A DNA stretch of 53,731 bases from a bacterium (GCA_043807085.1 JAZDGI010000012.1:1-53731); one strand, 5' to 3'. Counted from the first letter of the stretch, positions 6,164 to 39,733 are shown. Numbers and translations: made by a program. Notes: generated from the letters alone by a model not told the origin.

Positions 6164-9100
6164 ATGTCTAATATCACAAAAAAGATTATCGCTTGTGTTA
6201 CCGCTTTGACAGTTTCAGTTTGGTTAGTAGGTCCTGGCACGGTCCAAGCCCTTACTGCCGATGAATTGCAGGCGCAGATAAGCACCTTATTGGCTCAATT
6301 GACCCAGCTGCAATCGCAATTGTCAACATTGCAAGGCCAGTCAACAACTGGCTCCGGCAGTTCTCTGGCCGCTTGTTCCGGAATCACATTTGACCGGAAT
6401 TTAAGCCAGGGTATGTCTGGAAACGACGCCAAATGCTTGCAAGCCCTGTTAAATCAGAGCAGTGACACGAAAATAGCCTCGTCAGGAGCCGGCTCTCCGG
6501 GAAATGAAACTACCTTCTTTGGCGCTTTGACCAAAGCGGCAGTTGTCAAATTACAGGAGAAATATAAAGCCGAGATTTTAACCCCCGTGGGATTGACTGC
6601 TGGAACCGGATTTTTCGGACCGTCCACAAGGACTAAAGCAAATTCGCTTTTGTCTTCTGGCGTTCCGACCACTCCAACCACTCCAACCACTCCAACCACT
6701 CCGACTACCCCTGTGGGAGGCGAAAACAAAGTTTATTTAGCCGCTGACACTCCGTCTGCCAGATCCGTTGCCAAGGGAGCACAGAATGTTACTTTCGCAA
6801 AAATTAATTTCTGCGCCGCTTCCGAGGCCAATACCGTGTCCAAGCTTACTTTCAGCAGGACAGGTATCGCGGCTGACGCTGATATCAGCAATGTTAAATT
6901 ATGGGAGGGCATAACTCAGGTTGGTTCTACCCAAGCCATTAATTCCACTACTCATAAAGCGGTTTTTTCGTCTTTAAGTTGGACGATTGCCGCTAATTCC
7001 TGCAGAGTCCTAACTCTGACGGCTAGCATTGCCAATGGCGCGACGGCCGGCGATACTCCGAAACTGGAGATTGTTTCAGCTTCAGACATCACCTCAACCG
7101 TTGCCCTGGACGGTGTTTTCCCGATTCAGAGCAATTCCTTCACTATTGCCGGAATCGCAGTGGGAGCCTTAAACGTGGCTACCACTACTCCCTCCGGATC
7201 AGTAGTTGCCGGCGGACAAGAGCAGGGAATAGCTGGATTTATCCTGACCGCTTCTTCGTCTGAAGGAGTGAAAGTCACTTCTATTAAAATTACTGAAGTC
7301 GGTTCTTCTGTTAACGACGACCTTTCCAACGTCAAGCTAATGTATCAGTCAGCCCAGCTTGGCTCAACCGTTGCGGCTTTGGATGCCGCCGGCGCCGCTG
7401 TCTTTGATTTGACGGCAGCTCCATTGGAGCTTTTGGCCGGCACTTCCAAGACACTGACTGTTTATGTTGATGTTGGTTCTGGCACTGGCATTAAAGACAG
7501 AACGATTCAGTTTGAAATTACGGACAAGAACCATATTTCCGCTTTTGGCACCAACTCCGGAGGCAGTATTCTCTCTTGGGGAGCCAGCGGAGTTTGGAGC
7601 ACGACTAACGATGCCTGGCCGCAAAAAGCAGCTTCCATCACGGTTAATCTGGGAAGCTTGACTGTGGCTCAGGATACAGCTTACAGCCCGTCAGCCCAGC
7701 AATACACCAGAGGCACCAGCCAGAACAAGGTTGTCGCCTTTAAGTTTACATCTGGAGCTAACGAAGATGTCAGAATTTCTTCTTTAAAGCTTCGTTCAGC
7801 ATCGGGCGCTGGATTGCCTGACGCCAGCATTGCCAATATTACCCTTTACGACGCCGTAACCGGCGAACAGTTAAAGGATACAGCGGGCAATCTGATACCA
7901 GCAGCTGGAATGAGTTCTGCTTACGTCACTTTTGGTTCTTACACTACCGGGCTTGACACGGTTGGCTTGTTTGATGTTCCCAAGTCCACCTTTAAGAGCA
8001 TTTTGGTTAAGGCCGATATCCCGCAGGGAGCGGCTACAGCCACTGCGATTTTTGGTCTTGAAATCAACAATCCCACCACCCAGATTTGGGCTGACGGAAT
8101 CAATTCCAAGAATGACATTCCCGCAGCTTCAATTAACGCCGGATCTGCCACTAAAGTTCCCAGCACTGCTTTAACGCACGACATTATTGAGAAAGGAACT
8201 TTGACCGTAGCTCCGAGCTCGCAAACGCCTGCTTCGGCAAATTACGGAGTTGGCATAAGCAGCTTTACCATTGCCAAGTTTGATTTGACGGCAACTGGAG
8301 AAGACATTAATGTTACTCAATTTAATGTTCTCTTTGCCACCAACACCGCCGGCAACGCCACCACAACAGTGGCTGACTCCGCCGATGTCAACAATATCAA
8401 GCTTTACGACGGTTCAACTTTGCTAGCTTCCGATTCCCAGGTTTCTACGGGATACGCGGAATTTGCCGTTAATTTTGACGTAGCCAAAGCCACCACTAAA
8501 ACTTTGACAGTGGTTGTTGATATTCCTACAGGATCTGACGCCGGAGGTTTGCAAGCTTGGCTGGAAAAAGCCAGCGATGTTTCAGCAACCGGCCGAAGCT
8601 CCAACGTCACCATTACCGCAACAGCGGCCAGTTGGTCTCTTGTTAAGGGTAATGTGATGACCAAGGGTACGCCTATAGTCACAGTCAGAGCAGCGACCAC
8701 ACCAGCCAGCCAGACTTACATTCAGAATGCCACTCAAGTTTCGGTTTTAAGCCTTTTGCTTACCGCTACTCCGACTGAAGACGTTAAAATTACCAGAATT
8801 CAGATTGCTGTTGACGCCACTTCGTCTGCCACCAGCACAGTCGGAACAGCTTCAACTACTTTCAGCTACGGAGATCCGACTGGAGTAGTTGTCACCGTAG
8901 CTTCTTCCACTACTGGTTTGGGAACTGAATCTGTTAAAGACTACTTTGCCAATATGAAACTGTTTGACGGCTCAACCCAGGTTGGCAATAACGCGCCGAC
9001 AATTACCGATGGCACGGCTTACGACTACGCTGACTTTACCGGTTTGAATTTGGTTATTACAAAAGGAACAACCAAAGTTATTACCGTCAAAGTGGACGTG

Positions 9101-10702
9101 GCTAAAGGCACGACAACAACCGGAAACGTTCCTGCTTTCTTCTTTGGAGTTGCTACCACGACCGGATCGTCAATTGATATTTCCGGCTCTGGCGTCCTAT
9201 CAGGATTAGCAGCCACCTTTGCTATGTCAGCAGGAGGCGTTGGTTCTCAGCCAATGTACTTTGGTTCAGCCGGCAGTTTGGTTGTGGCGCTTGACACCAA
9301 CACTCCGAATTCATCAGTTGTTATGGAAGGAACCACAGCTACTCTTGGCAAGTGGAAGTTCACTGGCGTTAACGAAGGCATTAAAATTTCTAAGTTGAGA
9401 TTTGATGTCCGCCACAGCGATTTGGCTTCAACGACTGTTTATGTCACGGAAGCCAGACTTCTCGCCTTGGCAACCAGCACCAGATTGGCGAAAGATTATG
9501 CCTTTGACTATTCCATTAATAACGCCGCGACCGAGACCTGCTCTTTTGCATGGGATTCGCCGACCACGACTGCTGCTACCGACCGATTCATCGCTTATAT
9601 AAACTCGGCCAGCTCAAGCTGCGCCGCTGATATCGCTGCTGCCGCTGCCACAACGACTGACGCCGCTGTTATTCTTTACGCTTCGCCTTCTGGAAATTCC
9701 TTAATGATTTACGACTATCCCAATCCTTACGGCGGAGGTAATAATGCCAGCAACGTGGCTGACAACCTGCGAATCGGTTTGAAATACGGCCCAGCTGATG
9801 CGACCGGCCGTGAAGTTATTTCCAGATACGAAGGCGCTGATTCCAGCTTGGTTGCCGGAAAAGTTGCCATTTGGGACGGAACCACTAAATTAGCTGAAAC
9901 CAGCTTAAGCGGTTCTGTTAATAGTCAGGCAATCTTTACCTTCACTCCGGAAATTGAAATTCCCAAAGGCAGTAAGGTTCTAACTCTAACAGCCGATCTC
10001 ACAGATTATATGGCCGCGGTTGAAGGAAGTACCATTCTGTTCAGTATCGGCACTTCAACCGTTACCAGCGCTTCAGACACAGACTACATTACTGCTAAAG
10101 GAGCTAGCTCTAACACGCCTCTTACCAGCGCCAGCATTACTATGGACGCTGAAAAAGCCAGCAACGAAATGTGGATTTACGCCACTTATCCGACTGTTTC
10201 GCTGAATGCCTCTTCGCCTTCAGGCGCCCAGACAGCCAACGCTATGGCCGAGGTCTTCAGGTTTGATGTCAAGAATATCAATCCTTCAATTAGCCTGGAC
10301 ATTAATGCCATCAGATTTACTCTGAACACTAATGCTTCTTCGGCTATTTCAGACAAGACCTTCAGGCTCTACAATAAATCCACTGACCCGACTATGAACA
10401 CTATTATCGGGACCACGGTTTCTTGGGGAACTGGCACGAGCACGGCTGTTACTCTGTACGCTACAATCTATCCTTATAGGGACTACACAGTGCCGGAAGG
10501 AACAACGTTCACCTATGTCTTGAAGGCCAATACCTCATCTATGAATGAAGGCACTTCAAAGACTGAAACTCTGACAGTCAGCATTGAAGACGGCGACTTT
10601 TACTGGGATGATTCATCGGGCGTAATGGATGGAGTCAATGCCGCCAATGCCAATCAGAAGGTTCTGAACCTGCCGGTTACCGGAGGCACTCTGCAGTACT
10701 AA
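6164..10702 (+). CDS. 1512-aa secreted S-layer-like surface protein: signal peptide, coiled coil, peptidoglycan-binding-like domain, PT linker, about 7 beta-sandwich repeats
   Basis: Signal peptide (...VGPGTVQA/LTA). LQAQISTLLAQLTQLQSQL coiled coil. LSQGMSGNDAKCLQALLN...FFGALTKAAVVKLQ...FFGPSTR is PG_binding_1-like. Ser/Thr/Ala/Gly-rich. Recurring NxKL(Y/W/F)DG motif. Codons look visibly more C-ending than in neighbours. Confidence 0.8.
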   Translation: MSNITKKIIACVTALTVSVWLVGPGTVQALTADELQAQISTLLAQLTQLQSQLSTLQGQSTTGSGSSLAACSGITFDRNLSQGMSGNDAKCLQALLNQSSDTKIASSGAGSPGNETTFFGALTKAAVVKLQEKYKAEILTPVGLTAGTGFFGPSTRTKANSLLSSGVPTTPTTPTTPTTPTTPVGGENKVYLAADTPSARSVAKGAQNVTFAKINFCAASEANTVSKLTFSRTGIAADADISNVKLWEGITQVGSTQAINSTTHKAVFSSLSWTIAANSCRVLTLTASIANGATAGDTPKLEIVSASDITSTVALDGVFPIQSNSFTIAGIAVGALNVATTTPSGSVVAGGQEQGIAGFILTASSSEGVKVTSIKITEVGSSVNDDLSNVKLMYQSAQLGSTVAALDAAGAAVFDLTAAPLELLAGTSKTLTVYVDVGSGTGIKDRTIQFEITDKNHISAFGTNSGGSILSWGASGVWSTTNDAWPQKAASITVNLGSLTVAQDTAYSPSAQQYTRGTSQNKVVAFKFTSGANEDVRISSLKLRSASGAGLPDASIANITLYDAVTGEQLKDTAGNLIPAAGMSSAYVTFGSYTTGLDTVGLFDVPKSTFKSILVKADIPQGAATATAIFGLEINNPTTQIWADGINSKNDIPAASINAGSATKVPSTALTHDIIEKGTLTVAPSSQTPASANYGVGISSFTIAKFDLTATGEDINVTQFNVLFATNTAGNATTTVADSADVNNIKLYDGSTLLASDSQVSTGYAEFAVNFDVAKATTKTLTVVVDIPTGSDAGGLQAWLEKASDVSATGRSSNVTITATAASWSLVKGNVMTKGTPIVTVRAATTPASQTYIQNATQVSVLSLLLTATPTEDVKITRIQIAVDATSSATSTVGTASTTFSYGDPTGVVVTVASSTTGLGTESVKDYFANMKLFDGSTQVGNNAPTITDGTAYDYADFTGLNLVITKGTTKVITVKVDVAKGTTTTGNVPAFFFGVATTTGSSIDISGSGVLSGLAATFAMSAGGVGSQPMYFGSAGSLVVALDTNTPNSSVVMEGTTATLGKWKFTGVNEGIKISKLRFDVRHSDLASTTVYVTEARLLALATSTRLAKDYAFDYSINNAATETCSFAWDSPTTTAATDRFIAYINSASSSCAADIAAAAATTTDAAVILYASPSGNSLMIYDYPNPYGGGNNASNVADNLRIGLKYGPADATGREVISRYEGADSSLVAGKVAIWDGTTKLAETSLSGSVNSQAIFTFTPEIEIPKGSKVLTLTADLTDYMAAVEGSTILFSIGTSTVTSASDTDYITAKGASSNTPLTSASITMDAEKASNEMWIYATYPTVSLNASSPSGAQTANAMAEVFRFDVKNINPSISLDINAIRFTLNTNASSAISDKTFRLYNKSTDPTMNTIIGTTVSWGTGTSTAVTLYATIYPYRDYTVPEGTTFTYVLKANTSSMNEGTSKTETLTVSIEDGDFYWDDSSGVMDGVNAANANQKVLNLPVTGGTLQY
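6665..6712 (+). repeat. 9-bp tandem repeat (ACTCCAACC x3 plus degenerate units) encoding a PTT linker
   Basis: ccgacc-actccaacc-actccaacc-actccaacc-actccgact-acccct = PTTPTTPTTPTTPTTP. Confidence 0.9.
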
Positions 10703-12628: not shown

Positions 12629-12874
12629 ATGCCAGAGATTAAGCCAAACGAAATCTATACGACCCAAGAGGCCCAAACCTTTCTAAAAGTAAGCAAAAGC
12701 ACAATTAAAAGATTTCTGAAGGGAGGAATTATCAGGGCTTACAAGGTTGGCGGAAGCTACCGGATCTGGGGCAGCGAAATTTTGCGTTTGGTTTCGCCGG
12801 AAGTGGAATCCAAAGTTTACCGGGTTTACAAAAAGGTCAAAGATAAAACAAGAGAAACTCTGGAAAAATGGTAA
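12629..12874 (+). CDS. Small helix-turn-helix DNA-binding protein (excisionase/MerR-like HTH_17)
   Basis: YTTQEAQTFLKVSKSTIKRFLKGGIIRAYKVGGSYRI; 81 aa. Confidence 0.85.
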   Translation: MPEIKPNEIYTTQEAQTFLKVSKSTIKRFLKGGIIRAYKVGGSYRIWGSEILRLVSPEVESKVYRVYKKVKDKTRETLEKW

Positions 12875-13326
12875 ATAGAAACAAAAAAATCATTGTGGCG
12901 GTCAGCGGCGGATTTGACCCACTGCACGTTGGCCATGTCAGACTATTCAGAAAGGCTAAGAGCTTGGGCGATAAATTAGTGGTTATTTTAAATAACGATA
13001 ATTGGCTGAAGCAGAAAAAAGGATTTTCTTTCATTCCCGAAGAAGAGCGCAAAGAAATAATTGAATCTTTAAAATGGGTGGACAAGGTTATATTGACAAA
13101 ACACCGCTCGGGAACGAAAGATAAAACCGTTTGCCGAGAGCTGGAAGAGCTAAGTCCGAATATTTTTGCCAACGGCGGAGACAGGACGGACAAAAACGTT
13201 CCGGAAGTCGCGATTTGCCAAAAAATAAATTGCCAAATGGTTTTTAATGTCGGCGAAGGCGGAAAGGTCCAATCGAGTTCTTGGTTATTGAAAAAATTTC
13301 TCAAAGATGCCAGAAAACAAAATTAA
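12868..13326 (+). CDS. Cytidylyl/adenylyltransferase (HIGH-motif, TagD-like family)
   Basis: VSGGFDPLHVGH, VVILNND, ANGGD, KVQSSS. Confidence 0.85.
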   Translation: MVNRNKKIIVAVSGGFDPLHVGHVRLFRKAKSLGDKLVVILNNDNWLKQKKGFSFIPEEERKEIIESLKWVDKVILTKHRSGTKDKTVCRELEELSPNIFANGGDRTDKNVPEVAICQKINCQMVFNVGEGGKVQSSSWLLKKFLKDARKQN

Positions 13327-14034: not shown

Positions 14035-15168
14035 ATGAAAAATATAATTATTATTGTTATTGACGCCTTCAGGCCAAAAAATTTGAGCTTATTCGGCTAT
14101 GCTAAAGAAACTGATAAAAACTTAAAAGCGATTGCCAAAGAAGGATTTTTTCTCAAGAATTTTTTTTCCAGCTCAAATGCCACCGCTCCTTCTTTGATGT
14201 CTATTTTCACCGGCCGGCTTCCGTCAAATCACGGAATAGTGCATCAGTTTCCTTATACTAAGGATGAGGAAGTTGAGAAAATGTACCGAGAGAGGAAATT
14301 TTGGCTCCCTTCTTTTTTGAAAAGCAAAGGATATGAGACCATTGCCGTAGATTGGCTGGGGATGTTTTTTGAAGACGGGTTTGATTATTACAAAGAAAGG
14401 GAAGATTGGCAGGGAGAATTGAAAACCTTTACTAAATTTTCTCCGGCCAAAGATACTATGGATTTGGCTATTTCTAAAATAGCAACAGCCCAAAAGCCAT
14501 TTTTTGCCTTTGTTCATTTTTGGGACACCCATTTCCCGTTTCTGACGACAGAATATCGGGGAACACCGGCTAAAGACATCAGCGAAGTCCTAGAGGGGAT
14601 AAATGGCGATTCTCAAAAAGAGCATTATAAAAAAAGGGTTATGGTTGAAGGCAACGCTCTTTACCCAGTCAGCGGCATGATTGAAAAATACGACGAAGCC
14701 ATTAAAGAGGTTGATAAGCAAATTGGCAAGCTTGAGCAATATCTAAAAGAGAACAATCTTTGGGACAACACGATTTTTATGGTCCTCGGCGATCACGGAA
14801 CCAATTTGACGGAGCATAATATTTATTTCAGCTCCTGCTCGCTTTTTGACGAAACAATTCACGCTCCATTTATCGCTCGTTTTCCGGGCATAACCAAAGA
14901 AGAAACAGAAAGTTTTGTCCAAAATACCGATATTACGCCCACTATCTTAGAATTAATCGGCCAAAAGCCGGAGATGCTAAGTGACGGAAAATCAATGCTT
15001 GACAACAAAGAAAGGGATAAGGTTTTCTTTTTTGACGGGCTGGCCGAAGATATCAGCGGAGAAAGAACAAAAACTAAAAAAATAATTATTGCCAAAGGTC
15101 GAAAATGCCATCTTTGCAAATCGGAACACCACCAGGAAAGGGAAGAATGCGATTTGCAACAGGCTTAA
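14035..15168 (+). CDS. Sulfatase-like / alkaline-phosphatase-superfamily hydrolase or transferase 1
   Basis: IVIDAFRP, TAPSLMSIFTG, HFWDTH, YDEAIKEVD, GDHG. No CxPxR motif. Confidence 0.8.
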   Translation: MKNIIIIVIDAFRPKNLSLFGYAKETDKNLKAIAKEGFFLKNFFSSSNATAPSLMSIFTGRLPSNHGIVHQFPYTKDEEVEKMYRERKFWLPSFLKSKGYETIAVDWLGMFFEDGFDYYKEREDWQGELKTFTKFSPAKDTMDLAISKIATAQKPFFAFVHFWDTHFPFLTTEYRGTPAKDISEVLEGINGDSQKEHYKKRVMVEGNALYPVSGMIEKYDEAIKEVDKQIGKLEQYLKENNLWDNTIFMVLGDHGTNLTEHNIYFSSCSLFDETIHAPFIARFPGITKEETESFVQNTDITPTILELIGQKPEMLSDGKSMLDNKERDKVFFFDGLAEDISGERTKTKKIIIAKGRKCHLCKSEHHQEREECDLQQA

Positions 15169-15197
15169 TTAATAATTAACTAATAATTATTTACGAT

Positions 15198-15959
15198 ATG
15201 AGCGCTATAAATTTTACTTCAGCGAGAACAAAAGGATGTGAAGAACTGATGAATCCCGAAGCTAGGGAATGTCTCAATCTTTCATTAGACGAAAAAGTCA
15301 AAAAAAGCCAAAGCGTTATAAGGGAGGCCTTGGAAAAGTATTCTAAGGTGGGATTAGGGTTTAGCGGCGGCACCGACAGTCTGGTTTTATTGCATTTGGT
15401 TCTGTCTTTGAAACCCGATATCACGACTATTTACGTTGATACGCAAGATGATTTTCCCGAATGCCACGAATTTGTGGAAAAAATAAGAAAAGAATGGAAT
15501 TTAATTGACCATCATGAGGCCAAGGCAGAGACAAAAAGATTTGACGAATTCAAGGAGAAGTTCGGCTTAAAGAGCCCGGAGTTTACTACGGTCTGCTGCA
15601 ACCATCACAAAATAAGCCCGATGATGAAAGCTATCGGCGATTCTGGATTTGACGCTTTTTTTGTCGGCTTGAGAGGGGTTGAACACGAAGAAAGGGCCAA
15701 GGAAACTTTCTTTTCTCCGAGAAAAAACCCTGATCATATGAGAGTGCACCCTCTTTTGTTTTGGCGAAAGGACGATATCTTGGAGTATGTCAAAAAGAAT
15801 AATATAGAATGCAACCCCCTTTATAAGCTAGGCTATACTTCTTTGGGCTGCGTTATGTGCACCGAAAAAAATCTTGATCCCAATGCCCACGAGCGAGCCG
15901 GTCGAGGCAGGGTCAGAGAAGAGATTATGAAAAGATTAAGAGATCTCGGTTATACGTAA
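15198..15959 (+). CDS. PP-loop PAPS-reductase-family protein, most similar in motif pattern to sulfate adenylyltransferase subunit 2 (CysD-like)
   Basis: FSGGTDS, CC, GLRGVEHEERAKETFFSPR, RVHPLL, YTSLGCVMC, ERAGR...RLRDLGY. Lacks the C-terminal ECG(L/I)H motif of APS/PAPS reductases. Confidence 0.7.
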   Translation: MSAINFTSARTKGCEELMNPEARECLNLSLDEKVKKSQSVIREALEKYSKVGLGFSGGTDSLVLLHLVLSLKPDITTIYVDTQDDFPECHEFVEKIRKEWNLIDHHEAKAETKRFDEFKEKFGLKSPEFTTVCCNHHKISPMMKAIGDSGFDAFFVGLRGVEHEERAKETFFSPRKNPDHMRVHPLLFWRKDDILEYVKKNNIECNPLYKLGYTSLGCVMCTEKNLDPNAHERAGRGRVREEIMKRLRDLGYT

Positions 15960-15978
15960 AAATCGCTATCGGCAATTT

Positions 15979-16368
15979 ATGGAAAAAAACATCTATATCC
16001 TGCGAAAAACCAGAGACGAATTCAAGAACGCGGCGATATTATGGACGGCGAATAAGGATTCCGATCAGCTTTTATCTTTGTGCAAAAAAGCATTTTTCGG
16101 GAAAGTGCCTTTTCCGATAATTTGCCTTGGAGATTGCCGCGGCGGCGAAATTGCCAAAGAGCAGGGGGTTAATTTAATATCCGGCGAAGCTGGAACGTTG
16201 AAAAAAACGGTTGACGAGCGCGGGCTTGACGCTCTCGTGGTTCTTAATGATTTTGATCCAGCCGTTGATCTGCCGGGCGTTTCTTTAATCAAGATCAATC
16301 TTTCCCCCGAGAAGGCCAATGAAAAAGAAGAAATAATGCGCAGGCTGCGCGATCTCGGCTATAGGTAA
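15979..16368 (+). CDS. Miniature degenerate CysD-like protein (129 aa)
   Basis: IYILR...FKNAAILWTANKDS...LCKKAFFGKVPFPII matches the CysD N-terminus. Ends KEEIMRRLRDLGY, like the upstream gene. Central catalytic motifs are missing. Confidence 0.6.
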   Translation: MEKNIYILRKTRDEFKNAAILWTANKDSDQLLSLCKKAFFGKVPFPIICLGDCRGGEIAKEQGVNLISGEAGTLKKTVDERGLDALVVLNDFDPAVDLPGVSLIKINLSPEKANEKEEIMRRLRDLGYR

Positions 16369-16369
16369 T

Positions 16370-17770
16370 ATGCCAGGAAAACCCAATATCATTTTTATTA
16401 CCGTTGATTGCTTGAGGGCCGACCACTTGGGTTTTATGGGATACTCAAAAGACGTCAGCCCGAACATTGACAAATTAGCCAAAGAATCGGCTGTTTTTAC
16501 CCAAGCCTTTGCTATTGGGCCGGGCACGCCCTGTTCTTTCCCTTCAATTTTAACCTCAACCTATCCCTTGGATTATCAGGGACCACAGATAAAAGAACCG
16601 AGGTTAATGATCAGCCAGGCTTTGAAAGAACAGGGCTATGTCACGGCCGCTTTCCACTCCAGCTGCTGGCTTTCAAGCTTTTTCGGCTACGATCGCGGCT
16701 GGGATTTCTTTGAAGATATAACGCCTGACAGCGAAATGTGGCTTGAAACCGGCCCGCAGGAGGAAACTAAAATAAAGGCAAGGTTTCTTTTGTCTGGATT
16801 CTTAAGGCCGATAGAAAGAGTTGTCGCCGGATTTTTACCCGAACTTTATTTTCCTCTAAGGTACTTAGCTTATAAATTAAGAGGAGGGAGCACGAATATC
16901 AAGGTTAAGGCCGAGGCGGTTAATCTGTTAGTTAAGGATCTGATCAGGGCAAAAAAAGAAGAAGGGCCGCCTCTTTTCATCTGGATTCATTATATGGACG
17001 TTCACGGCCCTTATTTGCCTTATTTGACTTACGTCAACGACAAGCCTCTTTCTTACCAAGAAACCGTTGTCAAATCATTTCCGAGCTTTCTGCAGTCTTG
17101 TTTTTTCAGGAAAATCGCTAAAAGATTCATCAGAAAATATCTTAAAAAAACCATTGGCCTTTATGATCAGGGAATAGAATATGCTGATGAAAAAATAGGG
17201 GAATTGCTTGATTTTCTGCGCGCCGAAGATATTTTTCAGAATTCAATCATTTGTTTTTGCGGCGACCATGGAGATGAGTTTATGGAGCATAACGAGTCTT
17301 CTCATAATAACAAACTTTACAATGAGCTTTTGCATGTACCTCTTTTAATAAGAGCGCTGGGAGTTATGCCTCAAAGAATTGATAAAAAAGTTTCTTTGAT
17401 TGATTTGCCTCCGACTTTCTGCTCTCTGGCCGGAATTGGAATCAGTCGTTCTTTCAAAGGGAAAAATTTATTCAGCCCCCAATCCACAGAAGTTTTTCAT
17501 CAGGCGATATCGCCCAAAGTCAGAGGAATTAAGCACGACGCCGACATCAAGGACGCAAAATACACTATGGTTGGCTATCAATCTAACGATTGGAAATATA
17601 TTTTAGACCATGCAACCTCAAAAGAGGAGCTTTATTGTCTGAAAAACGATCAAGGGGAAAAAGTCAACGTTGCCAAGTTGCGGCCTGAAATTATTTCAGC
17701 AATGAGAAAAAAAATTGAAGAATTTGAGAGAAAAAATCCGCCGCTCGCTAACTTGATAAAAAATGGATAA
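16370..17770 (+). CDS. Sulfatase-like hydrolase/transferase 2
   Basis: ITVDCLRADH, GTPCSFPSILTS, HYMDVHGPY, YDQGIEYAD, GDHG. Confidence 0.8.
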   Translation: MPGKPNIIFITVDCLRADHLGFMGYSKDVSPNIDKLAKESAVFTQAFAIGPGTPCSFPSILTSTYPLDYQGPQIKEPRLMISQALKEQGYVTAAFHSSCWLSSFFGYDRGWDFFEDITPDSEMWLETGPQEETKIKARFLLSGFLRPIERVVAGFLPELYFPLRYLAYKLRGGSTNIKVKAEAVNLLVKDLIRAKKEEGPPLFIWIHYMDVHGPYLPYLTYVNDKPLSYQETVVKSFPSFLQSCFFRKIAKRFIRKYLKKTIGLYDQGIEYADEKIGELLDFLRAEDIFQNSIICFCGDHGDEFMEHNESSHNNKLYNELLHVPLLIRALGVMPQRIDKKVSLIDLPPTFCSLAGIGISRSFKGKNLFSPQSTEVFHQAISPKVRGIKHDADIKDAKYTMVGYQSNDWKYILDHATSKEELYCLKNDQGEKVNVAKLRPEIISAMRKKIEEFERKNPPLANLIKNG

Positions 17771-19157
17771 AAAACCCAATATAATTTTAATAACTGTTGA
17801 CGCTTTGAGGTCAGACCGCCTTGGCTTTTTGGGCTGTCCGAAAAACATTAGTTCCAATATTGATAATTTAGCCAGAGAATCAGCTGTTTTTACGCGGGCT
17901 TTTTCGGTCGGTCCAAACAGCCCACATTCTTTTCCAGCCATTTTGACGTCAACCTATCCTTTGGATTTTCAAGGGCTTTACAAGATTGAGAAGCCTCGGA
18001 AAATTTTGAGTGAGGTCTTAAAGGAGCATGGCTATGTCACCGCCGCTTTCCATTCCACCCCTTATCTTTCAGATTTTTTCGGTTACAACCGAGGCTGGGA
18101 TTTTTTTGAGTATATCACCTCGCCCGTGAATCCCGACTTTTTCCCGGGCCAGGGCAAGTTAGCCGAGTTAAAGCTATATCTCAAAGACTCTTTAAAGGGC
18201 CTGTTTAAAAAAATCGCGGTAAATTTCTATCCTAAAATCTTGTTTAAACTGATGTACCGGCGTTATCTGCCAAAATTCAAAGAAGAAAATGAGCCGCAGA
18301 TTAAAGCTGTTTTTGTCAATAAAATCATCAAAGACTTTGTTCTGGCTGCCAAAGCCAAGGAACAGCCTTTCTTTTTGTTCGCGCATTATATGGATGTCCA
18401 TTCGCCTTACATCCCCAAAGAAAAAGATCTTAGCCAGCCGCTTTCTTTCGCTGAATTTGTTTCGGCCTGGCTGCCCGGCTATTTGGGATACGCAAAAAAA
18501 AGACTTTTTAGAAATTTTATCAAGCCTTACTTTGAAATGATGGTTGATTCTTACGACCAGGGGATCAAAGATCTGGACGGCCAGCTGGGGAGTCTTTTTG
18601 ACTTTTTGAAAAAAGAAGCCGTTTTTCAAAACAGCATTATCTGCTTTACGGCCGATCACGGCGAGGAGCTTTTAGAGCACGGCGAAGGTTTCCACAACGC
18701 CAAGCTTTACAACGAACTTTTAGCCGTGCCGCTTTTGATTAAAATTCCCGGCCAAGGAAGCCAAAAAATAGAAAAAAAAGTTTCACAGATTGATTTGCCC
18801 TCAACCCTGTGCGAGCTGGCCGGGATAAAGCCGCCAGCAAACTTTAAGGGTAAAAATATTTTTGAATCTTTTCGGGAAATAATTTTTCATGAGTCAGGCG
18901 CAGGATCCAAAGAAAAAATGAACGGCTGGATAGAAATTGAAAAGCTCAAAGAGTGCAAGTTTGCCTGCCAGTCCGACGACTGGAAATATATTTTAGATAA
19001 TCCCTTAAAGAGAGAAGAGCTTTATTGTCTGGAAAAAGACCCTAAAGAGCAGAATGATCTTTCTAAGTCCTGCCCGGAAGTTTTGGTCAAAATGAGAAAA
19101 ATTATGGAAGATTTTCAAAAGGAAAACAAGCCGCTTTCTTTATTGGCTAAAAAATAA
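17763..19157 (+). CDS. Sulfatase-like hydrolase/transferase 3 (tandem paralog of 2)
   Basis: ITVDALRSDR, NSPHSFPAILTS, HYMDVHSPY, ADHG. Colinear similarity to the 16370 gene in both protein and DNA. Confidence 0.8.
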   Translation: MDKKPNIILITVDALRSDRLGFLGCPKNISSNIDNLARESAVFTRAFSVGPNSPHSFPAILTSTYPLDFQGLYKIEKPRKILSEVLKEHGYVTAAFHSTPYLSDFFGYNRGWDFFEYITSPVNPDFFPGQGKLAELKLYLKDSLKGLFKKIAVNFYPKILFKLMYRRYLPKFKEENEPQIKAVFVNKIIKDFVLAAKAKEQPFFLFAHYMDVHSPYIPKEKDLSQPLSFAEFVSAWLPGYLGYAKKRLFRNFIKPYFEMMVDSYDQGIKDLDGQLGSLFDFLKKEAVFQNSIICFTADHGEELLEHGEGFHNAKLYNELLAVPLLIKIPGQGSQKIEKKVSQIDLPSTLCELAGIKPPANFKGKNIFESFREIIFHESGAGSKEKMNGWIEIEKLKECKFACQSDDWKYILDNPLKREELYCLEKDPKEQNDLSKSCPEVLVKMRKIMEDFQKENKPLSLLAKK

Positions 19158-19159
19158 TT

Positions 19160-20626
19160 ATGGCGATTATCAGCATCAGCAAAACTAAATCGTTCCTGTT
19201 TGATCACCAAACGGTGAAGCAGACAATTTTTAAGAATACTTTTTGGCTTGGTTTGGCCGAGGGTATAAGCCGGCTGGCTACGTTTGCTTTGTTCATTTTC
19301 GTTGCCAGGATTCTGGGAGCCACTGAATACGGAAAGTTTTCTTTTGTCCTGGCGGTTGTCGGCCTGCTGCTCTTGCTGCCTGGATTTGTTTCGTCGGAAA
19401 TCATTACCAGAGAATTCTCCAAGGATAAAGAGAAAGAAAAAGAATTTTCCAGCCTTTTTACCTTAAAATTGCTTTTTGGCCTGGCGTCAATTTTATTTTT
19501 GTTCGGCATTTCGTTTTTTGTCACTGCCGACGCCATTATCAGAAAGGTAATCTGGATTATGTCAGCTTACTGGATTTTAAACAGCCTGGTGGATATTGTT
19601 TACGCTTTTTTCAGGGCTCGGCAAAGAATGGAATACGAATCTTTTTTTAAGATTTTTGACGCTCTGCTGACGACCGGCTTCGGTTTGTTTGTTATTTTTA
19701 AATTTCCCTCAATTGAAAATTTAAGCTATGCTTATTTACTTGAGGGACTGGTTCTTTGCGGCGTTATTTTATTGTTTTTTCATTTTAAAATCAGAAAAAT
19801 GTCGTTTGGGTTTAACAAAAAAATCTGGAAGAAAATCCTGTCTCTTTCCTGGCCAATGGCTTTAATCGGGCTGACAGCCGGAATTTACAGCCAAATTGAC
19901 ACGGTGATGATGGGCTTTTTCAATCAAATAACCGAAACCGGCTGGTATAACGCCTCTTTTAAAATCACCAGAATGGCCCTTGTCCCAGTTGCCCTTATTT
20001 CGCAGAGTTTTTATCCCGTCTTGAGTAAATTTTTTCAGGAATCAAAAGACAAATTGCAGGAGGCGTGGACTTTTCAGGCAAAAATTATGATCTGGCTGGC
20101 TTTTCCCCTGATGGCTGGCGGCGTGGTTTTGGCTCCTAGGATCATTGACTTTTTATACGGCCGAAGCTATCTCCCGGCAATTATGTCTTTTCAAATGCTT
20201 ATCATTATGACGGGCGTAATGTTTCTTTACGATACTTTCAGGCAGGTTTTGATTGTCTCCAATCAGCAAAAAAAGGTTTTTTGGGCAATTTTGGCCGGAG
20301 CCATAGTCAATATAGCCTTAAACCTTATTCTGATTCCCAGATTCAGTCTGAATGGAGCGGCTTTAGCCACTCTTTTTACCAATATCTTGATTTTCTTTCT
20401 GTTTTTGAAATTTATATTAAAGTACACCGAAATTAAGCCGTTTAATCAGGAAATTTTACGGGAAACAATAAGCGCCTTGGCGGCCTGCGTGATAATGTAT
20501 CTGATTATTTCCCGGGCCTTTGTTTATAGCTTGCCGGTCGTTTTTTCAATCTTAATCGGAATAGCAACTTATTTTATTGCGTTGTTTATTCCAAAAAAAA
20601 TATGCCAAATTATAAAAAAGCGTTAA
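19160..20626 (+). CDS. wzx: Wzx-type oligosaccharide flippase
   Basis: Many TM helices; [54 protein letters not shown]. Confidence 0.88.
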
Positions 20627-25661: not shown

Positions 25662-27131
25662 ATGAAATTTAAAATTTTATTGATAAAACCGAATCTTTGC
25701 GTGAGAAAAGGATTTTATCTGCAGGAAAAGATGTGCCCGCCTTTGGGCCTTGCCTATCTGGCAGGTTCCCTTATTGAGGCTGGCTATGAAGTGGAAATAC
25801 TGGATATGGTGGCGGCTTCTTCGGAAAGCTGGCCGTATAAAACAACCCATATCGCTCACGGACTGACCGACCAAGGATTGATTGAAAAAATAAAAGAGTA
25901 TGGCCCGGATTTGGCGGGCGTAGGCGGTTTTACCAGTCAATACTCAAGGATTAAAGATATTATCGCCGCGATCAAGGCGTTTAACCCGGAGATAAAAATT
26001 GTGGCGGGCGGAGTTCATGCCACTGTTATGCCAGAGCAAATGATGAAAGAAACTAAGGTTGATTTTGTCATCCGGGGAGAGGGAGAGCTAGCTATGGTCG
26101 CTTTGACTCGGGCTCTTGAGGCAAAAGATTATAAAAAAATTGAAAGCATTGACGGCATCGGCTACCGAGATGGCGATAAGATCGTTATTAATCCGAAAGT
26201 AAACTTTGAACAGAATCTGGACAATTTGCCTTGGCCAGCCCGTCAATTGTTTGATTATAAAAAATACATAGAAGACGACCAGGCTATGCCTGTTATTACT
26301 TCAAGAAGCTGTCCGGGCCGATGTTCTTTTTGCAGCGTGCATTTGTTTTCCGGCTATGCTTGGCGCGCCCGCGATCCGATTAAAGTCGTTGACGAAATAG
26401 AAGCTTTTGTCAAAAGATGGGGCTATAAAACCGTATCCATATTTGACGATGCCTGTAATATCATACCGCAAAGACTGATCACTATACTTCAGGAAATCAT
26501 CCGGCGGCAATTGAAAATAAAAATCACTTTTCCCGGAGGGCTGGTGACAAAATATATTACCAAAGATTTGCTTTATTGGATGAAGCAATCGGGCGTTGTT
26601 TCCTTAATCATTCCCCTTGAACATTCTAACGAGCATATGCGAAACAACGTGATTGGAAAAAACTTAGATATTGAAAAGGCGTTTGAGGTGCTTAATTGGT
26701 GCCGCGAGTTGGAAATTCTGACGATGGTAAACTTTGTTATCGGCATGCCCGGAGAAACCAAAGAGAGCATTGAAGATATTATCCAGTTCATCAAAAAAAA
26801 CGCTTTGCTAGTGGACGCTTTGGCGGTTTATATCGCCACTCCTTTTCCCGGCTCGCCTTTTTACGACCAGTGCCTTGAAAAAGGTTATTTGCTGAATCCC
26901 GTCAGAAACAATTTTTTGGATTTTGATCTTTATTCCACCCATATTGAAACCACGACAATGCCTTCTTCTTTGCTGGAAAATTACAAAAAAACAATAGAGC
27001 AGGCGTTTCTGGAAGCCCGCGGAAAAGATTTCCCGGCCGATTACATCAGAAAAGCCATCCGCAAGCCGGATGAAGAAACCAGCGATTATATCCACAATGC
27101 TTATTTTAAAAATTTAAAATCGCCAAGATGA
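25662..27131 (+). CDS. B12-binding radical SAM protein 1
   Basis: PPLGLAYLA, GGVHAT, VIRGEGE (cobalamin domain); TSRSCPGRCSFC; NFVIGMPGET; TPFPGS. Confidence 0.9.
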   Translation: MKFKILLIKPNLCVRKGFYLQEKMCPPLGLAYLAGSLIEAGYEVEILDMVAASSESWPYKTTHIAHGLTDQGLIEKIKEYGPDLAGVGGFTSQYSRIKDIIAAIKAFNPEIKIVAGGVHATVMPEQMMKETKVDFVIRGEGELAMVALTRALEAKDYKKIESIDGIGYRDGDKIVINPKVNFEQNLDNLPWPARQLFDYKKYIEDDQAMPVITSRSCPGRCSFCSVHLFSGYAWRARDPIKVVDEIEAFVKRWGYKTVSIFDDACNIIPQRLITILQEIIRRQLKIKITFPGGLVTKYITKDLLYWMKQSGVVSLIIPLEHSNEHMRNNVIGKNLDIEKAFEVLNWCRELEILTMVNFVIGMPGETKESIEDIIQFIKKNALLVDALAVYIATPFPGSPFYDQCLEKGYLLNPVRNNFLDFDLYSTHIETTTMPSSLLENYKKTIEQAFLEARGKDFPADYIRKAIRKPDEETSDYIHNAYFKNLKSPR

Positions 27132-28240
27132 TAATTAAATTCGTTGACCTGCAAGGGCAATATCAAAAGATTAAAAAGGAAATAGAAAAAGAAGTTTTGG
27201 AGGTTTTAGCTTCGGGCCGTTATTCTGCCGGGCTGAAAACCGAAGCTTTTGAAAAAAAATTCGCTGAATTCTGCCGGACAAAATACGCTTTGGCTGTTAA
27301 CAACGGCAGTTCGGCTCTTCTTTTGGCGCTTTTGGCGCTGAACTTAAAAAAAGGCAGTGAGGTCATTACCCAGCCCAATACTTTCGTGGCCACGGTCGCG
27401 GCTATAATTTTTGCCGGATTAAAGCCTGTTTTTTGCGACATTAATCCTGAAACATATAATCTTGACGCAAAAAAAATTGAGAAAGTCATTACCAAAAAAA
27501 CCAAGGTTATTTTGCCGGTCCATCTTTTCGGCCAGACAGCTGATATGGGGGCGATTTTAAAGATTGCCAGGAAGTATAAATTATTTGTGGTTGAAGACTG
27601 CGCTCAAGCTCACGGAGCAGAATATCATAAAAAGAGAGCGGGATCTTTCGGAGATATCGGGTGCTTTAGCTTTTATCCGACAAAAGTTTTAGGCGCTTGC
27701 GGCGAAGGAGGAGCCGTGGTTGTAAATAATCAGGAACTGGTTGAGAAAATGAAAAGATTGAGAGATCATGGTTCCGCCAAAAAATATTATCATTCAGAGG
27801 TCGGCTTTAATTTCAGGCTGGAAGAAATTCAGGGAGCGATTCTGGGAGTGAAGATGAAATACTTGGGCCAATGGATAAAATCGCGCCAAAAAGCCGCCAG
27901 GATTTACGATAAGCTTTTAAAAAACAGCGGGGTTGCCACTCCTTTTGCGCCAAAAGGATTCAAAGGCGTTTATTATGTTTATGTTGTCAGGGCAAAAAAT
28001 AGAAACGAGCTACAGGAATATCTGGCTAAATCCGGAATCGGAACAATGATTCATTATCCCTTGCCCATTCATCTGCAGGAAGGATACAAATTTTTAGGAT
28101 ATAAGACGGGCGATTTTCCGGAAGCTGAAAAAGCGGCTGATGAAATTTTGTCTTTGCCATTTTATCCGGAAATAAAATTGAGCGAGCAAAAACTGGTCGC
28201 CCAGAAAATAAAAGAGTTTTATGCCGGTTATGCAAAATAA
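27128..28240 (+). CDS. DegT/DnrJ/EryC1/StrS PLP sugar aminotransferase 1
   Basis: VNNGSSAL, PVHLFGQ, EDCAQAHG, FSFYPTKVLG, FNFRL. Confidence 0.93.
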   Translation: MIIKFVDLQGQYQKIKKEIEKEVLEVLASGRYSAGLKTEAFEKKFAEFCRTKYALAVNNGSSALLLALLALNLKKGSEVITQPNTFVATVAAIIFAGLKPVFCDINPETYNLDAKKIEKVITKKTKVILPVHLFGQTADMGAILKIARKYKLFVVEDCAQAHGAEYHKKRAGSFGDIGCFSFYPTKVLGACGEGGAVVVNNQELVEKMKRLRDHGSAKKYYHSEVGFNFRLEEIQGAILGVKMKYLGQWIKSRQKAARIYDKLLKNSGVATPFAPKGFKGVYYVYVVRAKNRNELQEYLAKSGIGTMIHYPLPIHLQEGYKFLGYKTGDFPEAEKAADEILSLPFYPEIKLSEQKLVAQKIKEFYAGYAK

Positions 28241-29714
28241 ACTGCGCTTATTTATCAGCGAATTAAGGGAAAAAGGATTGCCTTATGCTCTTAAAAGGGT
28301 GGTCAATCTTATTTTACGTCCGATTAATGATCTGGTTGAAAGCCGCGTTTCTCTAATTGAATTGCGGTATGGGATATTGCCAAAAATTTTGCCTGATTTC
28401 TCTTCGGGTCCTGATAAATTTTACCAGTCAAATCTGGTAAAATCAGCCAGGGAGTTCTGGCTCCAAAATAAACCAGGCAGCTTTGATCTGGACGGCCAAA
28501 AGATTACGAGAAAAGAAATTTTTATATACGGCGGGCCTGACTCGAAAATTATTTGTCCTGTTTGCCAAAAATCAGAGTGGCTTTCAAGAATCAGGCAGAA
28601 AAATTTATTTTCGCCGCATTTCTGCAAGCGGAGCAAATTGGGCGAAGTTTTGTGTTCCAGGCAGGGAGACGAAATGTGGACTCATTGCCATCAAAATTTT
28701 GATTTTTCTTTTGGCTGCGACGCCAAACTGCCGGCTGCCAAATGCCTCTATCTCATACACAAGGGGAAAGAAAATTTTCTTAATCCCCGCTGCGAGCCCT
28801 GGCTTTTGGTTATGAGGAGACGTCTGGCTTTTGCCTGCCAGGTTGACGTGGCTGACAGCGCTCGCGGCATTAACTGGTCTGACTACGACTTTGTCTTTAC
28901 AATAAACGGCGGGAATAATCCGAAATTTTCTAGGCCAAACATTCCGATTATTATGTACGGCCACGACTTTTGGCCATTATCAAACAAAGGATTTCAGTGG
29001 GTTATAGACTGGATGAAGCCTGATATTTTTATGGCTTCGGACATCAGCCAGTGGAAAAAGAATTTCAGTTTTCCAGTCCGGACAAGATTCGTTTTTTACC
29101 CGCTTTTTGAATCATCTTTTTTCTCCCGGCCCAACTTAGCCGGCAAGAGACTTGATCTTTTGCTGGTCGGCGCCAAAGCGTCTTTGGTTTACAAGGCGCG
29201 GGCAGAGCTTTTAAAGCAGATTGAGCAATTTGCCAAGGGCCTTGGCCGGCGCTACAAAATTGAAATTTCCACGGCCAACGGCTCCAACAACGTTCTAAGA
29301 GAAGGGAGCTTGATTAAGAAAGACGCCGAATCCGGCCAGACAATCCGTCTTTTGAATAAATGGTCGGAATATTTGGGTTCGGCCCGCTACGCGATTTTTG
29401 GCGGAACTCTTTACCCGAGTTTAACCTATAAGCATTATGAGTTTTTGGGCTCTGGCGCCATACCGATTTTTCCGGAAACTCCCGATTTGAAATTTTTGAA
29501 TATCAGGCCTTTTGAGCATTACATTCCTCTTTCAGCTGTTTTAGGAGATAACGAAAAATTGTCTCATTTTTTGGACAATTACGACAAGTATAAATACATT
29601 GCCCGGAACGGGGTAAGATGGTATAAAGAATACTCCGATAAGATGATTTTTAACGATTTTGAAGACTTGGTCGGCGAAATTACCGATAATAAATTTCCTA
29701 AAAGATTAATTTAA
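28221..29714 (+). CDS. Uncharacterised protein: Cys/His-rich N-terminal domain plus GT-B-like C-terminal half
   Basis: CPVC, HFC, HCH cluster. C-terminal DLLLVG...EYLGSARYAIFG...KHYEFLGSG resembles the Glyco_trans_1_2 domain. Start may be 28230. Confidence 0.5.
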   Translation: MPVMQNKLRLFISELREKGLPYALKRVVNLILRPINDLVESRVSLIELRYGILPKILPDFSSGPDKFYQSNLVKSAREFWLQNKPGSFDLDGQKITRKEIFIYGGPDSKIICPVCQKSEWLSRIRQKNLFSPHFCKRSKLGEVLCSRQGDEMWTHCHQNFDFSFGCDAKLPAAKCLYLIHKGKENFLNPRCEPWLLVMRRRLAFACQVDVADSARGINWSDYDFVFTINGGNNPKFSRPNIPIIMYGHDFWPLSNKGFQWVIDWMKPDIFMASDISQWKKNFSFPVRTRFVFYPLFESSFFSRPNLAGKRLDLLLVGAKASLVYKARAELLKQIEQFAKGLGRRYKIEISTANGSNNVLREGSLIKKDAESGQTIRLLNKWSEYLGSARYAIFGGTLYPSLTYKHYEFLGSGAIPIFPETPDLKFLNIRPFEHYIPLSAVLGDNEKLSHFLDNYDKYKYIARNGVRWYKEYSDKMIFNDFEDLVGEITDNKFPKRLI

Positions 29715-29728
29715 AAAAAATAAAATAT

Positions 29729-30721
29729 ATGCCAAAAAAAATTTTAATTACGGGAGCTGCCGGCTTTGTCGGCCATCACTGCGTTGACCACTTGCTGAAA
29801 AACACTGATTTTAACATCGTGGTTCTGGATTCGCTGAATTACGCCGGCGAAATGAACAGAATAACCGACAGCGAAGTTTTTAGCCATGAAAGAGTCAAAT
29901 TCGTCTGGCACGATTTGCGGGCTCCTGTTTCCAGAACCGTCAATAAGCTGCTTGGCGATTTGGATTACTGCGTGCATTTTGCCGCCGAAAGCCACGTTGA
30001 CAAAAGCTTGGAAGACAGCGTTCCTTTTGTTCAGAGCAATGTGCTGGGAACGGCAAACTTGCTGGAATACTTCAAGCATTTTCAGCCGCAATGCAAAATT
30101 ATAATATTTTCCACAGACGAGGTTTTCGGCCCGGCCGCAGAAGGAGTTTATTTTAAGGAAGACGACAGCTTCAAGCCGTCAAATCCTTATTCGGCTTCCA
30201 AAGCCGGCGAAGAAATGATCGCTTATTCTTTTGCTCACGCTTTCGGCTTGCCGATTTCCATTGTCAGATCAATGAATATCGTGGGCGAGCGCCAATTTCC
30301 GGAAAAGTTTGTGCCCAAGACCATTAAAGCCATTTTAAACAACGAAAAAATTATGCTGCACGGCCGGGGAAGAAACGATTTGTCTTCAAGGTGCTGGATA
30401 CACGCCAGGAACGTGGCTGACGCTTTGCTCTTTTTGCTGGACAGGGCGAAAAAAGAGGAGTTCTATCACATTGTGGGCGAAGAGCGAAACGTTTTAGAAA
30501 TAGCCGACTGGATTTCAGAGGTAATCAGGGACCGAAAAATCAAGGACGACGAGATTGAGTGGGTTGATTATGAAATTGCCCGATCGGGCCATGATAAGAG
30601 ATACGCGCTTTCCGGAGAAAAATTGGCAAAAATGGGCTGGCAGCCGCCGGTTGATTTGGAAGCCTCTGTTAAAAAGACGGTCAAATGGACATTAGAGCAT
30701 CAAAAATGGCTGAATGTATGA
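29729..30721 (+). CDS. rfbB: dTDP-glucose 4,6-dehydratase-like NAD-dependent dehydratase
   Basis: ITGAAGFVG, HFAAESHVD, STDEVFG, PSNPYSASK, QFPEKFVP, GHDKRYA. Confidence 0.85.
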   Translation: MPKKILITGAAGFVGHHCVDHLLKNTDFNIVVLDSLNYAGEMNRITDSEVFSHERVKFVWHDLRAPVSRTVNKLLGDLDYCVHFAAESHVDKSLEDSVPFVQSNVLGTANLLEYFKHFQPQCKIIIFSTDEVFGPAAEGVYFKEDDSFKPSNPYSASKAGEEMIAYSFAHAFGLPISIVRSMNIVGERQFPEKFVPKTIKAILNNEKIMLHGRGRNDLSSRCWIHARNVADALLFLLDRAKKEEFYHIVGEERNVLEIADWISEVIRDRKIKDDEIEWVDYEIARSGHDKRYALSGEKLAKMGWQPPVDLEASVKKTVKWTLEHQKWLNV

Positions 30722-32360: not shown

Positions 32361-32366
32361 TTTATT

Positions 32367-39136: not shown

Positions 39137-39156
39137 GTATGTATTATTAAACGAGT

Positions 39157-39729: not shown

Positions 39730-39733
39730 TTAT

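Follow-up and report, generated by a model that had tools for sequence, protein, structure and literature searches.

In Halobacterium salinarum, the membrane-bound Agl30 (VNG1056C) and the cytosolic Agl31 (VNG1057C) are sulfatase-fold members of the alkaline phosphatase (AP) superfamily; deletion of their genes leads to loss of the N-glycan sulfate, their expression in Haloferax volcanii causes the glycan of that organism to be sulfated, and this genetic proof establishes them as N-glycan sulfotransferases that act on the dolichol phosphate-linked N-glycan before flipping (Zaretsky et al., 2025, mBio; PMC11980604). In structure they come nearest to 5G2U and 6HHM; a sulfate donor is not named in that paper, nor is the residue at the nucleophile position discussed (PMC11980604). 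Here, we describe a bacterial stretch of DNA of 53,731 nucleotides (GCA_043807085.1 JAZDGI010000012.1:1-53731, hereafter the window), in which positions 14035-19157 encode three sulfatase-fold paralogs, Sulf1, Sulf2 and Sulf3, an enzyme of the PAPS (3′-phosphoadenosine 5′-phosphosulfate) reductase family that we call type A, and a decayed CysD. We propose, with middling confidence, that this region is a cytoplasmic, PAPS-independent module that uses adenosine 5′-phosphosulfate (APS) to sulfate a lipid-linked glycan.

Sulf1 shares its nearest PDB entries, 5G2U and 6HHM, with Agl30 and Agl31, and all of them are encoded in a glycan cluster and placed on the cytoplasmic side. However, Agl30 and Agl31 are haloarchaeal, whereas the module here belongs to a bacterium of the Candidate Phyla Radiation (CPR), comprises three paralogs and is coupled to the PAPS-reductase-family enzyme. 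Haloarchaeal glycan clusters also carry Thr-type AP enzymes of the Sulf2/3 subfamily. The type I sulfatases of the S1 class share with Sulf1-3 the Pfam family, the fold, the metal-binding Asp and Asp-His and the HxP His, but the three paralogs have no C/S-x-P-x-R motif and no signal peptide, have lost the K-x-H element, and are found in a genome with no formylglycine-generating enzyme (FGE) or anSME. LtaS, EptA and OpgB likewise have the AP-superfamily core and employ a Thr nucleophile for transfer; they possess N-terminal transmembrane domains and work outside the cytoplasm with lipid donors, whereas Sulf1-3 are soluble, cytoplasmic and far below the family cut-offs, with 15-42 bits against the LtaS and EptA models at cut-offs of 500-970.

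The initial annotation had read T-A-P-S-L, T-P-C-S-F and S-P-H-S-F in place of the (C/S)xPxR motif at the nucleophile position, and the alignments bear this out. HMMER alignment to solved sulfatases, of Sulf1 to 7lha and of Sulf2 to the choline sulfatase 7oz8, places T50 of Sulf1 (TAPSL) and T53 of Sulf2 (TPCSF) at the formylglycine position, and in a MAFFT alignment S53 of Sulf3 (NSPHSF) shares the column of these two nucleophile threonines. None of the three has the C/S-x-P-x-R formylglycine motif, its Pro and Arg being replaced, and all retain the metal ligands (D, T/S, D, H, with the N-terminal Asp and GDHG) and the HxP histidine. Among 22 Sulf1 orthologues, D10, N48, T50, H70, Q71, Y74, D106, W107, H161, D164, T165 and H166 are invariant, and so are D253, H254, C358, C361, H365 and H366. 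The C-terminus of the Sulf1 type (window 15105-15168) carries an invariant C-x-x-C-K-x-x-H-H...EEYDL; this CxxCK..HH element looks like a zinc knuckle and does not appear in ordinary sulfatases. The AlphaFold2 model of Sulf1 has a mean confidence (pLDDT) of 85.7, and its top Foldseek matches are S1 carbohydrate sulfatases, with 5g2u and 6hhm among the top ten and TM scores to the S1 sulfatases of about 0.72-0.75. Sulf1 is the conserved partner of type A and the candidate sulfotransferase.

The cytoplasmic location follows from the N-termini, because the first catalytic beta-strand begins at residues 3-7 of Sulf1-3 and leaves them without a signal peptide, and no hydrophobic segment was found in them, the maximum 19-residue Kyte-Doolittle average being ≤1.35. 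Additionally, Sulf2 and Sulf3 carry basic inserts, at residues 218-262 of Sulf2 (10 K+R vs 2 D+E) and 105-200 of Sulf3 (18 K+R vs 10 D+E), from which a membrane association of these two proteins is plausible; both features, the missing signal peptides and the inserts in paralogs 2 and 3, had already been noticed in the initial annotation. Sulf3 is 46.8% identical to Sulf2 (tblastn), and orthologues of Sulf2 occur in the related loci L007, L051, L039 and L042 and in haloarchaea (L069, 123 bits).

The type A gene had initially been called CysD-like, which is true of two of its parts: its block RGVEHEERAKE resembles the RRDEEKSRAKE of CysD, and its C-terminal tail, REEIMKRLRDLGYT, resembles the CysD end. 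Against the profile models, however, the protein scores better with CysH (132 bits, NF002537, cut-off 154) than with CysD (93.8 bits, NF003587, cut-off 195), both below cut-off, and it reaches 105.8 bits with the APS reductase TIGR02055 (cut-off 235.3). Judged by these scores and motifs, type A is a hybrid and no true CysD. With the CysD of CysD-CysN (E. coli; P. syringae, 1ZUN) it shares the fold, the PP-loop, the RAKE block, ERxGR and a C-terminal ...GY(F/M/T), but it is about 50 residues shorter, has cysteines of the APS-reductase type and lacks a GTPase partner in this genome. CysH (2GOY, 7LHR) is its best match in sequence and structure, with CC...CxxC, the Lys and ERxGR in common; in contrast to CysH, type A has no ECGLH cysteine, which rules out both the thiosulfonate intermediate and sulfate reduction, and its PP-loop is of the ATP type.

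Individual residues support this placement. The PP-loop GFSGGTDS is intact and fits the full ATP-type consensus. C133, C134, C218 and C221 align with the [4Fe-4S] ligands (CC...CxxC) of the M. tuberculosis and P. aeruginosa APS reductases, K138 aligns with the lysine that follows the CC pair in APS reductase, and the motif HERAGRG contains the ERxGR common to CysH and APS reductase; K138 and ERxGR would be sulfate-binding residues, as is reported in the 2GOY work. The protein closes with EEIMKRLRDLGYT and has no Cys after C221, that is, no ECGLH catalytic cysteine, and therefore it cannot be a reductase. GFSGGTDS, HERAGRG and the RLRxLGY tail including Y252 are invariant in 66 type A sequences. 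In three of 22 homologues (P0091, P0105 and P0120), C133, C134 and C221 are lost together, with CC changed to YD and CxxC to CxxF, and C218 is retained; their joint loss marks them as one unit, and the Fe-S cluster seems, on this alignment, to be dispensable in some lineages. The AlphaFold2 model has a pLDDT of 94.5, with about 88-91 in the tail helix, and Foldseek matches it to CysH, APS reductase, FAD synthase and CysD, and also to FMN adenylyltransferase. Type A is, as far as its motifs and model indicate, a candidate GTPase-independent sulfate-activating or APS-handling enzyme. A TtuA-like thiolation was considered, as a PP-loop likewise meets an Fe-S cluster there and Foldseek gives hits of this kind at rank 42 and beyond; it is unlikely, since TtuA requires an open iron site and the four Cys ligands leave none.

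The CysD lineage of the window is represented by another gene. The 129-aa open reading frame (ORF) next to type A matches only the first ~50 positions of the CysD models, its PP-loop is eroded to TANKDS and its catalytic core is deleted, and it retains the N-terminus and the C-terminal tail (EEIMRRLRDLGYR). It is homologous to the CysD of L007 (260 aa) and to an intermediate in L064 (204 aa), and it, rather than type A, is the true CysD-lineage gene of the window, in a degraded state. CPR loci provide the steps of a decay series, from the intact 260-aa protein of L007 (9158-9940; 288 bits, above cut-off), through the 204-aa form of L064 (9768-10382) with its core deleted, to the 129-aa ORF, and finally to L005 and L065, which have no CysD and in which a second sulfatase-like protein bears the tail (L005 6488-7906). 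Because the N-terminus and the tail survive every step of CysD decay, the series suggests selection on the tail and not on catalysis.

When all ORFs of ≥150 aa in the window were compared with Pfam, none had an APS kinase, CysN or sulfotransferase domain, which agrees with the initial annotation that CysN, CysC and P-loop sulfotransferases are missing from it. The whole genome contains no APS kinase or Sat (PF01583, PF01747) and no FGE (PF03781), and its best anSME match (TIGR03942) reaches 18.5 bits vs a cut-off of 349. A tblastn search of the genome with the CysN-like protein of L038 gave three GTPase matches (23-34% identity), which we take as EF-Tu, EF-G and IF2. The genome search for cysN, cysC and FGE or anSME that the initial annotation had suggested thus came out negative, and a canonical PAPS pathway encoded elsewhere in this genome is ruled out by the missing APS kinase, Sat and CysN. 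APS kinase and Sat are also absent from all 37 other genomes that carry type A; with APS kinase missing throughout, PAPS cannot be the donor.

The association of type A with sulfatase-fold proteins extends well beyond this locus. Its homologues, 65-85% identical, belong chiefly to DPANN archaea (Woese-, Pace-, Nano-, Micr- and Aenigmarchaeota), with a few in CPR bacteria, and a co-occurrence analysis of the kind that the initial annotation had suggested places an AP-superfamily gene ≤3 kb from type A in 43 of the 44 evaluable loci. Some of these partners are of the Sulf1 type or of the Sulf2/3 type, others are a short form of 240-280 aa or belong to the PF01663 phosphodiesterase type, and a Wzx gene lies ≤10 kb from type A in many of the related loci. 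In L007, the most syntenic CPR locus, and in L038, the module also includes an EF-1alpha/CysN-like GTPase and a CysD that clears the NCBIfam cut-off, with 288 and 274 bits, respectively. A true CysD was found in seven of the 37 carrier genomes, all of which therefore hold both CysD and type A, and the remaining 30 have neither another sulfate-activating enzyme nor a GTPase partner. With APS kinase and Sat absent and CysD rare, type A is the sole candidate for sulfate activation in most carrier genomes. Within the order to which the window belongs, only two of 41 genomes have type A, which is therefore an accessory trait and probably horizontally transferred; yet between the window's bacterium and DPANN archaea it is 65-72% identical, and this looks as though a trait of the surface glycan had passed horizontally between the domains. 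As a separate observation, a PQ-loop/SemiSWEET-like membrane protein of 92 aa (PF04193, 4e-14) is encoded between a mini-AP gene and type A in L013 (9699-9977), and an ORF of 55 aa that is similar by sequence only lies just 3′ of type A in L030 (10768-10935); such a protein could be a carrier of a small solute (sulfate?) or of a sugar.

From the observed gene content, motifs, gene pairing and missing pathways, we infer a donor, an order of steps and acceptor sugars as follows. First, type A would bind ATP and sulfate and make, or at least handle, APS without a GTPase, and the 129-aa ORF would be a relic of the CysD that partners a CysN-like GTPase in related loci. Second, the sulfatase-fold enzymes with Thr or Ser would probably be sulfotransferases working through a metal-activated sulfo-Thr or sulfo-Ser intermediate, which could not break down by the elimination route of formylglycine. 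In human arylsulfatases with Cys changed to Ser, the sulfo-enzyme is reportedly trapped and not hydrolysed; with Ser or Thr at the formylglycine position, the sulfo-enzyme should be stabilised rather than hydrolysed, which would suit a transferase. Sulfate could then be placed on up to three positions of an undecaprenyl-phosphate-linked glycan on the cytoplasmic side of the membrane, where Sulf1 may be the soluble enzyme and Sulf2 and Sulf3 may work at the membrane surface, comparable to Agl31 and Agl30, respectively, and Wzx would subsequently flip the sulfated glycan.

Several observations weigh against such a sulfation module. The sulfate-binding Lys-x-His of true sulfatases is missing from all three paralogs, with VDWLG in Sulf1 and HSSCW in Sulf2 opposite GKWHL and GKMHW in the alignment of the sulfate-binding site, and Sulf1 is also without the later Lys. 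A Thr nucleophile is typical of phosphoryl transfer and not of sulfuryl transfer, and APS synthesis is thermodynamically hard without a GTPase or a kinase that pulls the reaction. The CysD of this window has decayed and no CysN is present in it. Hfx. volcanii has an APS-kinase-like gene, so that PAPS could still be the donor for Agl30 and Agl31. PF03567 was the single sulfotransferase family used for the search across genomes, and control genomes gave no match to it. Finally, sulfate transfer by Sulf1-3 and APS handling by type A are activities predicted from sequence.

The explanation that survives best beside sulfation is phospho-decoration, in which Sulf1-3 would be cytoplasmic phosphotransferases resembling LtaS, EptA and OpgB and would place a phospho-alcohol, such as glycerol phosphate or phosphoethanolamine, on the glycan; the nucleotide-activated donor would come from the cytidylyltransferase at 12868, or from type A if its activity resembles that of FMN adenylyltransferase. 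We regard this explanation as unlikely, but it accounts for several features at once. The Thr nucleophile with the D/T/D/H metal site is the signature of phosphoryl transfer, weak matches to the LtaS and EptA models and to PF01663 exist, true PF01663 phosphodiesterase-type partners occur in many loci, a TagD/RfaE-like nucleotidyltransferase lies shortly upstream, the type A fold also fits FAD synthase and FMN adenylyltransferase, and Sulf1-3 no longer have the sulfate-binding K-x-H. However, other loci with the module do not retain that cytidylyltransferase, the module co-occurs with CysD and CysN, which are known only for sulfate activation, type A retains the ERxGR and Lys of adenylyl-sulfate-binding enzymes, Sulf1 is far nearer to carbohydrate sulfatases than to LtaS or EptA, and sulfation has its precedent in Agl30 and Agl31. 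The initial annotation had envisaged cytoplasmic transferases that move either sulfate from APS or a phospho-group, and the two branches fare differently: the former gains from the pairing of type A with AP genes, the CysD and CysN of L007 and L038, the missing APS kinase and the haloarchaeal precedent, and the latter is less supported, as its proposed donor-making enzyme does not accompany the module elsewhere.

The next explanation concerns a C-terminal tail that recurs across these proteins. Its motif is hydrophobic-x-x-[KR]-L-[KR]-x-L-G-Y followed by 0-3 residues and the stop, and it is found on type A, on CysD and its relics, on ribbon-helix-helix (RHH) proteins, on peptides of 38-40 aa and on many AP-superfamily enzymes. 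In the window it lies at 15921-15959 and 16330-16368, ending type A and the 129-aa relic, the only two ORFs of the genome to end in it; further examples are in L001 (6306-6710) and L003 (7715-7945). A second ORF with the LGY tail occurs within 3 kb of type A in 36 of 44 loci and is usually an RHH protein of 70-130 aa, such as those of L001 (6480-6710), L003 (7715-7945), L016 (9696-9929), L061 (1782-2063) and L062 (4550-4780). The RHH-tail protein adjoins type A or CysD/CysN in most DPANN loci, and it is again next to CysD and the GTPase in those Micrarchaeota that encode these two away from type A; the window has none. Such a protein may be a regulator, sensing the enzyme or docking to it, and in the window the 129-aa CysD relic may substitute for it. 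In haloarchaea, every inspected AP enzyme of two glycan-type clusters (L073 and L075) and the L069 homologue end in the tail, the Thr-type AP enzymes of the Halorubellus clusters all ending in ...LRELGYLE, and another strain of Hbt. salinarum encodes a 445-aa Thr-type sulfatase-like protein (P0189) and two mini-AP proteins with the tail, adjoining Wzx. A similar GY tail ends canonical CysD, the tail region being matched by NF003587 profile positions 243-301, and it is not known to act covalently there.

On this basis, a sulfo-tyrosine relay can be imagined, in which type A would consume APS supplied by CysDN or by the host, the sulfuryl group would pass to the tail tyrosine, much as Cys-S-SO3 arises on the tail of CysH, and the sulfatase-fold enzymes would use the protein-bound aryl sulfate. 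The four cluster cysteines and the best alignment of type A with APS and PAPS reductases are consistent with it, as are the invariant RLRxLGY tail with Y252 in 66 sequences, the presence of the tail on RHH proteins, small peptides, decayed CysDs and AP enzymes, the seven genomes that hold CysD and type A together, and a sulfatase fold built for binding aryl and alkyl sulfates. It is nevertheless quite improbable, considering that in 30 of the 37 carrier genomes nothing else activates sulfate, that the PP-loop of type A is canonical and of the ATP type, and that the similar GY tail of canonical CysD is not known to act covalently. A further and very doubtful extension is that the shared tail is a swinging arm or docking tag, whose tyrosine would reach into the catalytic pocket of type A or of the CysD-like enzyme as the cysteine tail does in CysH, become O-sulfated or gate APS release, and pass the aryl sulfate to the sulfatase-fold transferase; the RHH proteins with the tail would report the state of the pathway to transcription, and mini-proteins such as the 129-aa relic would be carriers or competitors. 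If true, it would be a new sulfuryl-relay system.

Finally, that Sulf1-3 are hydrolases (a sulfatase, a phosphodiesterase, or an APS or nucleotide pyrophosphatase for trimming, proofreading or scavenging) or that the module is decaying and functionless is improbable: in its favour are the hydrolase annotation of the family, the decayed CysD with its lost CysN, and the presence of type A in only two of 41 genomes of the order, which fits a dispensable accessory function, but type A and Sulf1 retain every family-invariant residue, the genes overlap or follow each other closely in an operon that runs up to Wzx, the enzymes are cytoplasmic and lie by glycan assembly genes without formylglycine machinery, and a Ser for formylglycine is said to trap the sulfo-enzyme and block hydrolysis in human arylsulfatases. 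A classical sulfatase in particular is ruled out by the missing C/SxPxR, the absence of FGE and anSME, and the cytoplasmic location.

The setting of the proposed sulfation module is a genome of 529 kb that is 94% complete. The window encodes a bacterial extracytoplasmic function (ECF)-type sigma factor and a peptidoglycan-binding protein, and the host is therefore taken as a CPR (Patescibacteria) bacterium. Every gene from ~12.6 kb to the end of the window lies on the plus strand and belongs to one glycan assembly pathway, which comprises an initiating Bac_transf protein, glycosyltransferases of the GT1, GT2 and GT9 families, sugar-nucleotide tailoring enzymes, five radical S-adenosylmethionine (SAM) enzymes, Wzx and a Wzy_C/TPR protein; because this Bac_transf/GT/Wzx/Wzy_C pathway is complete, a lipid-linked acceptor exists. 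Between 14035 and 19157, successive ORFs are separated by gaps of 1-29 nt or overlap by 8 nt (Table 1).

Table 1. Genes of the module and its immediate neighbours, in window coordinates.
Feature	Length	Coordinates	Strand	Supporting match or remark
TagD/RfaE-like nucleotidyltransferase (cytidylyltransferase)		12868-13326		
DH241, truncated NDP-sugar-dehydrogenase-like	241 aa	13307..14032	+	weak UDPG_MGDP_dh matches
Sulf1, sulfatase-fold	377 aa	14035..15168	+	Pfam PF00884 at 4e-50
Type A, PAPS-reductase-family	253 aa	15198..15959	+	PF01507 at 3e-43
Decayed CysD	129 aa	15979..16368	+	CysD model NF003587, residues 3-49 only, 41 bits
Sulf2, sulfatase-fold paralog	466 aa	16370..17770	+	PF00884 at 7e-39
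Sulf3, sulfatase-fold paralog	464 aa	17763..19157	+	PF00884 at 2e-40; start overlaps Sulf2 end by 8 nt
Wzx-type flippase		19160..20626	+	Polysacc_synt PF01943 at 3e-30; begins 2 nt past Sulf3 stop

Directly upstream of the module, DH241 has the UDP-ManNAcA dehydrogenase 4r16 as its best PDB match, and a similar protein of ~240 aa without the C-terminal domain is conserved at this position in CPR loci, with orthologues directly 5′ of the module in L005 (3772-4500), L007 and L065 (607-1326). Further downstream, the region 25662-44226 holds the five radical SAM enzymes, of which three carry B12-binding domains, one carries SPASM and none comes up to the anSME cut-off, together with a heptose-type module of GT9, SIS, PfkB kinase and cytidylyltransferase-HAD. 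Two other ORFs, of 1512 aa (6164-10702) and 497 aa (28221-29714), have no Pfam match at the thresholds applied, and the former sits in a stretch with raised GC (0.48) and reversed GC skew.

In conclusion, as far as our searches show, the literature describes neither type A as a family nor its obligate pairing with AP-superfamily enzymes nor the shared tail. Sulfatase-fold glycan sulfotransferases have been recognised only in 2025 and in one haloarchaeon, and the module reported here links sulfatase-fold enzymes, both physically and in evolution, to a dedicated, strongly conserved CysD/APS-reductase-like enzyme in organisms without PAPS synthesis. Because it joins these enzymes in organisms lacking PAPS, the question of the donor becomes testable with two or three soluble proteins. 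The system is also extended to CPR bacteria and DPANN archaea, and the identity of 65-85% between proteins across domains, along with their patchy occurrence within the window's order, suggests that ultrasmall symbionts have exchanged a cell-surface trait between domains. If the proposed sulfation holds true, many genes annotated in metagenomes as sulfatases or PAPS reductases would need re-annotation, and a PAPS-free route of sulfation would be useful in biocatalysis.

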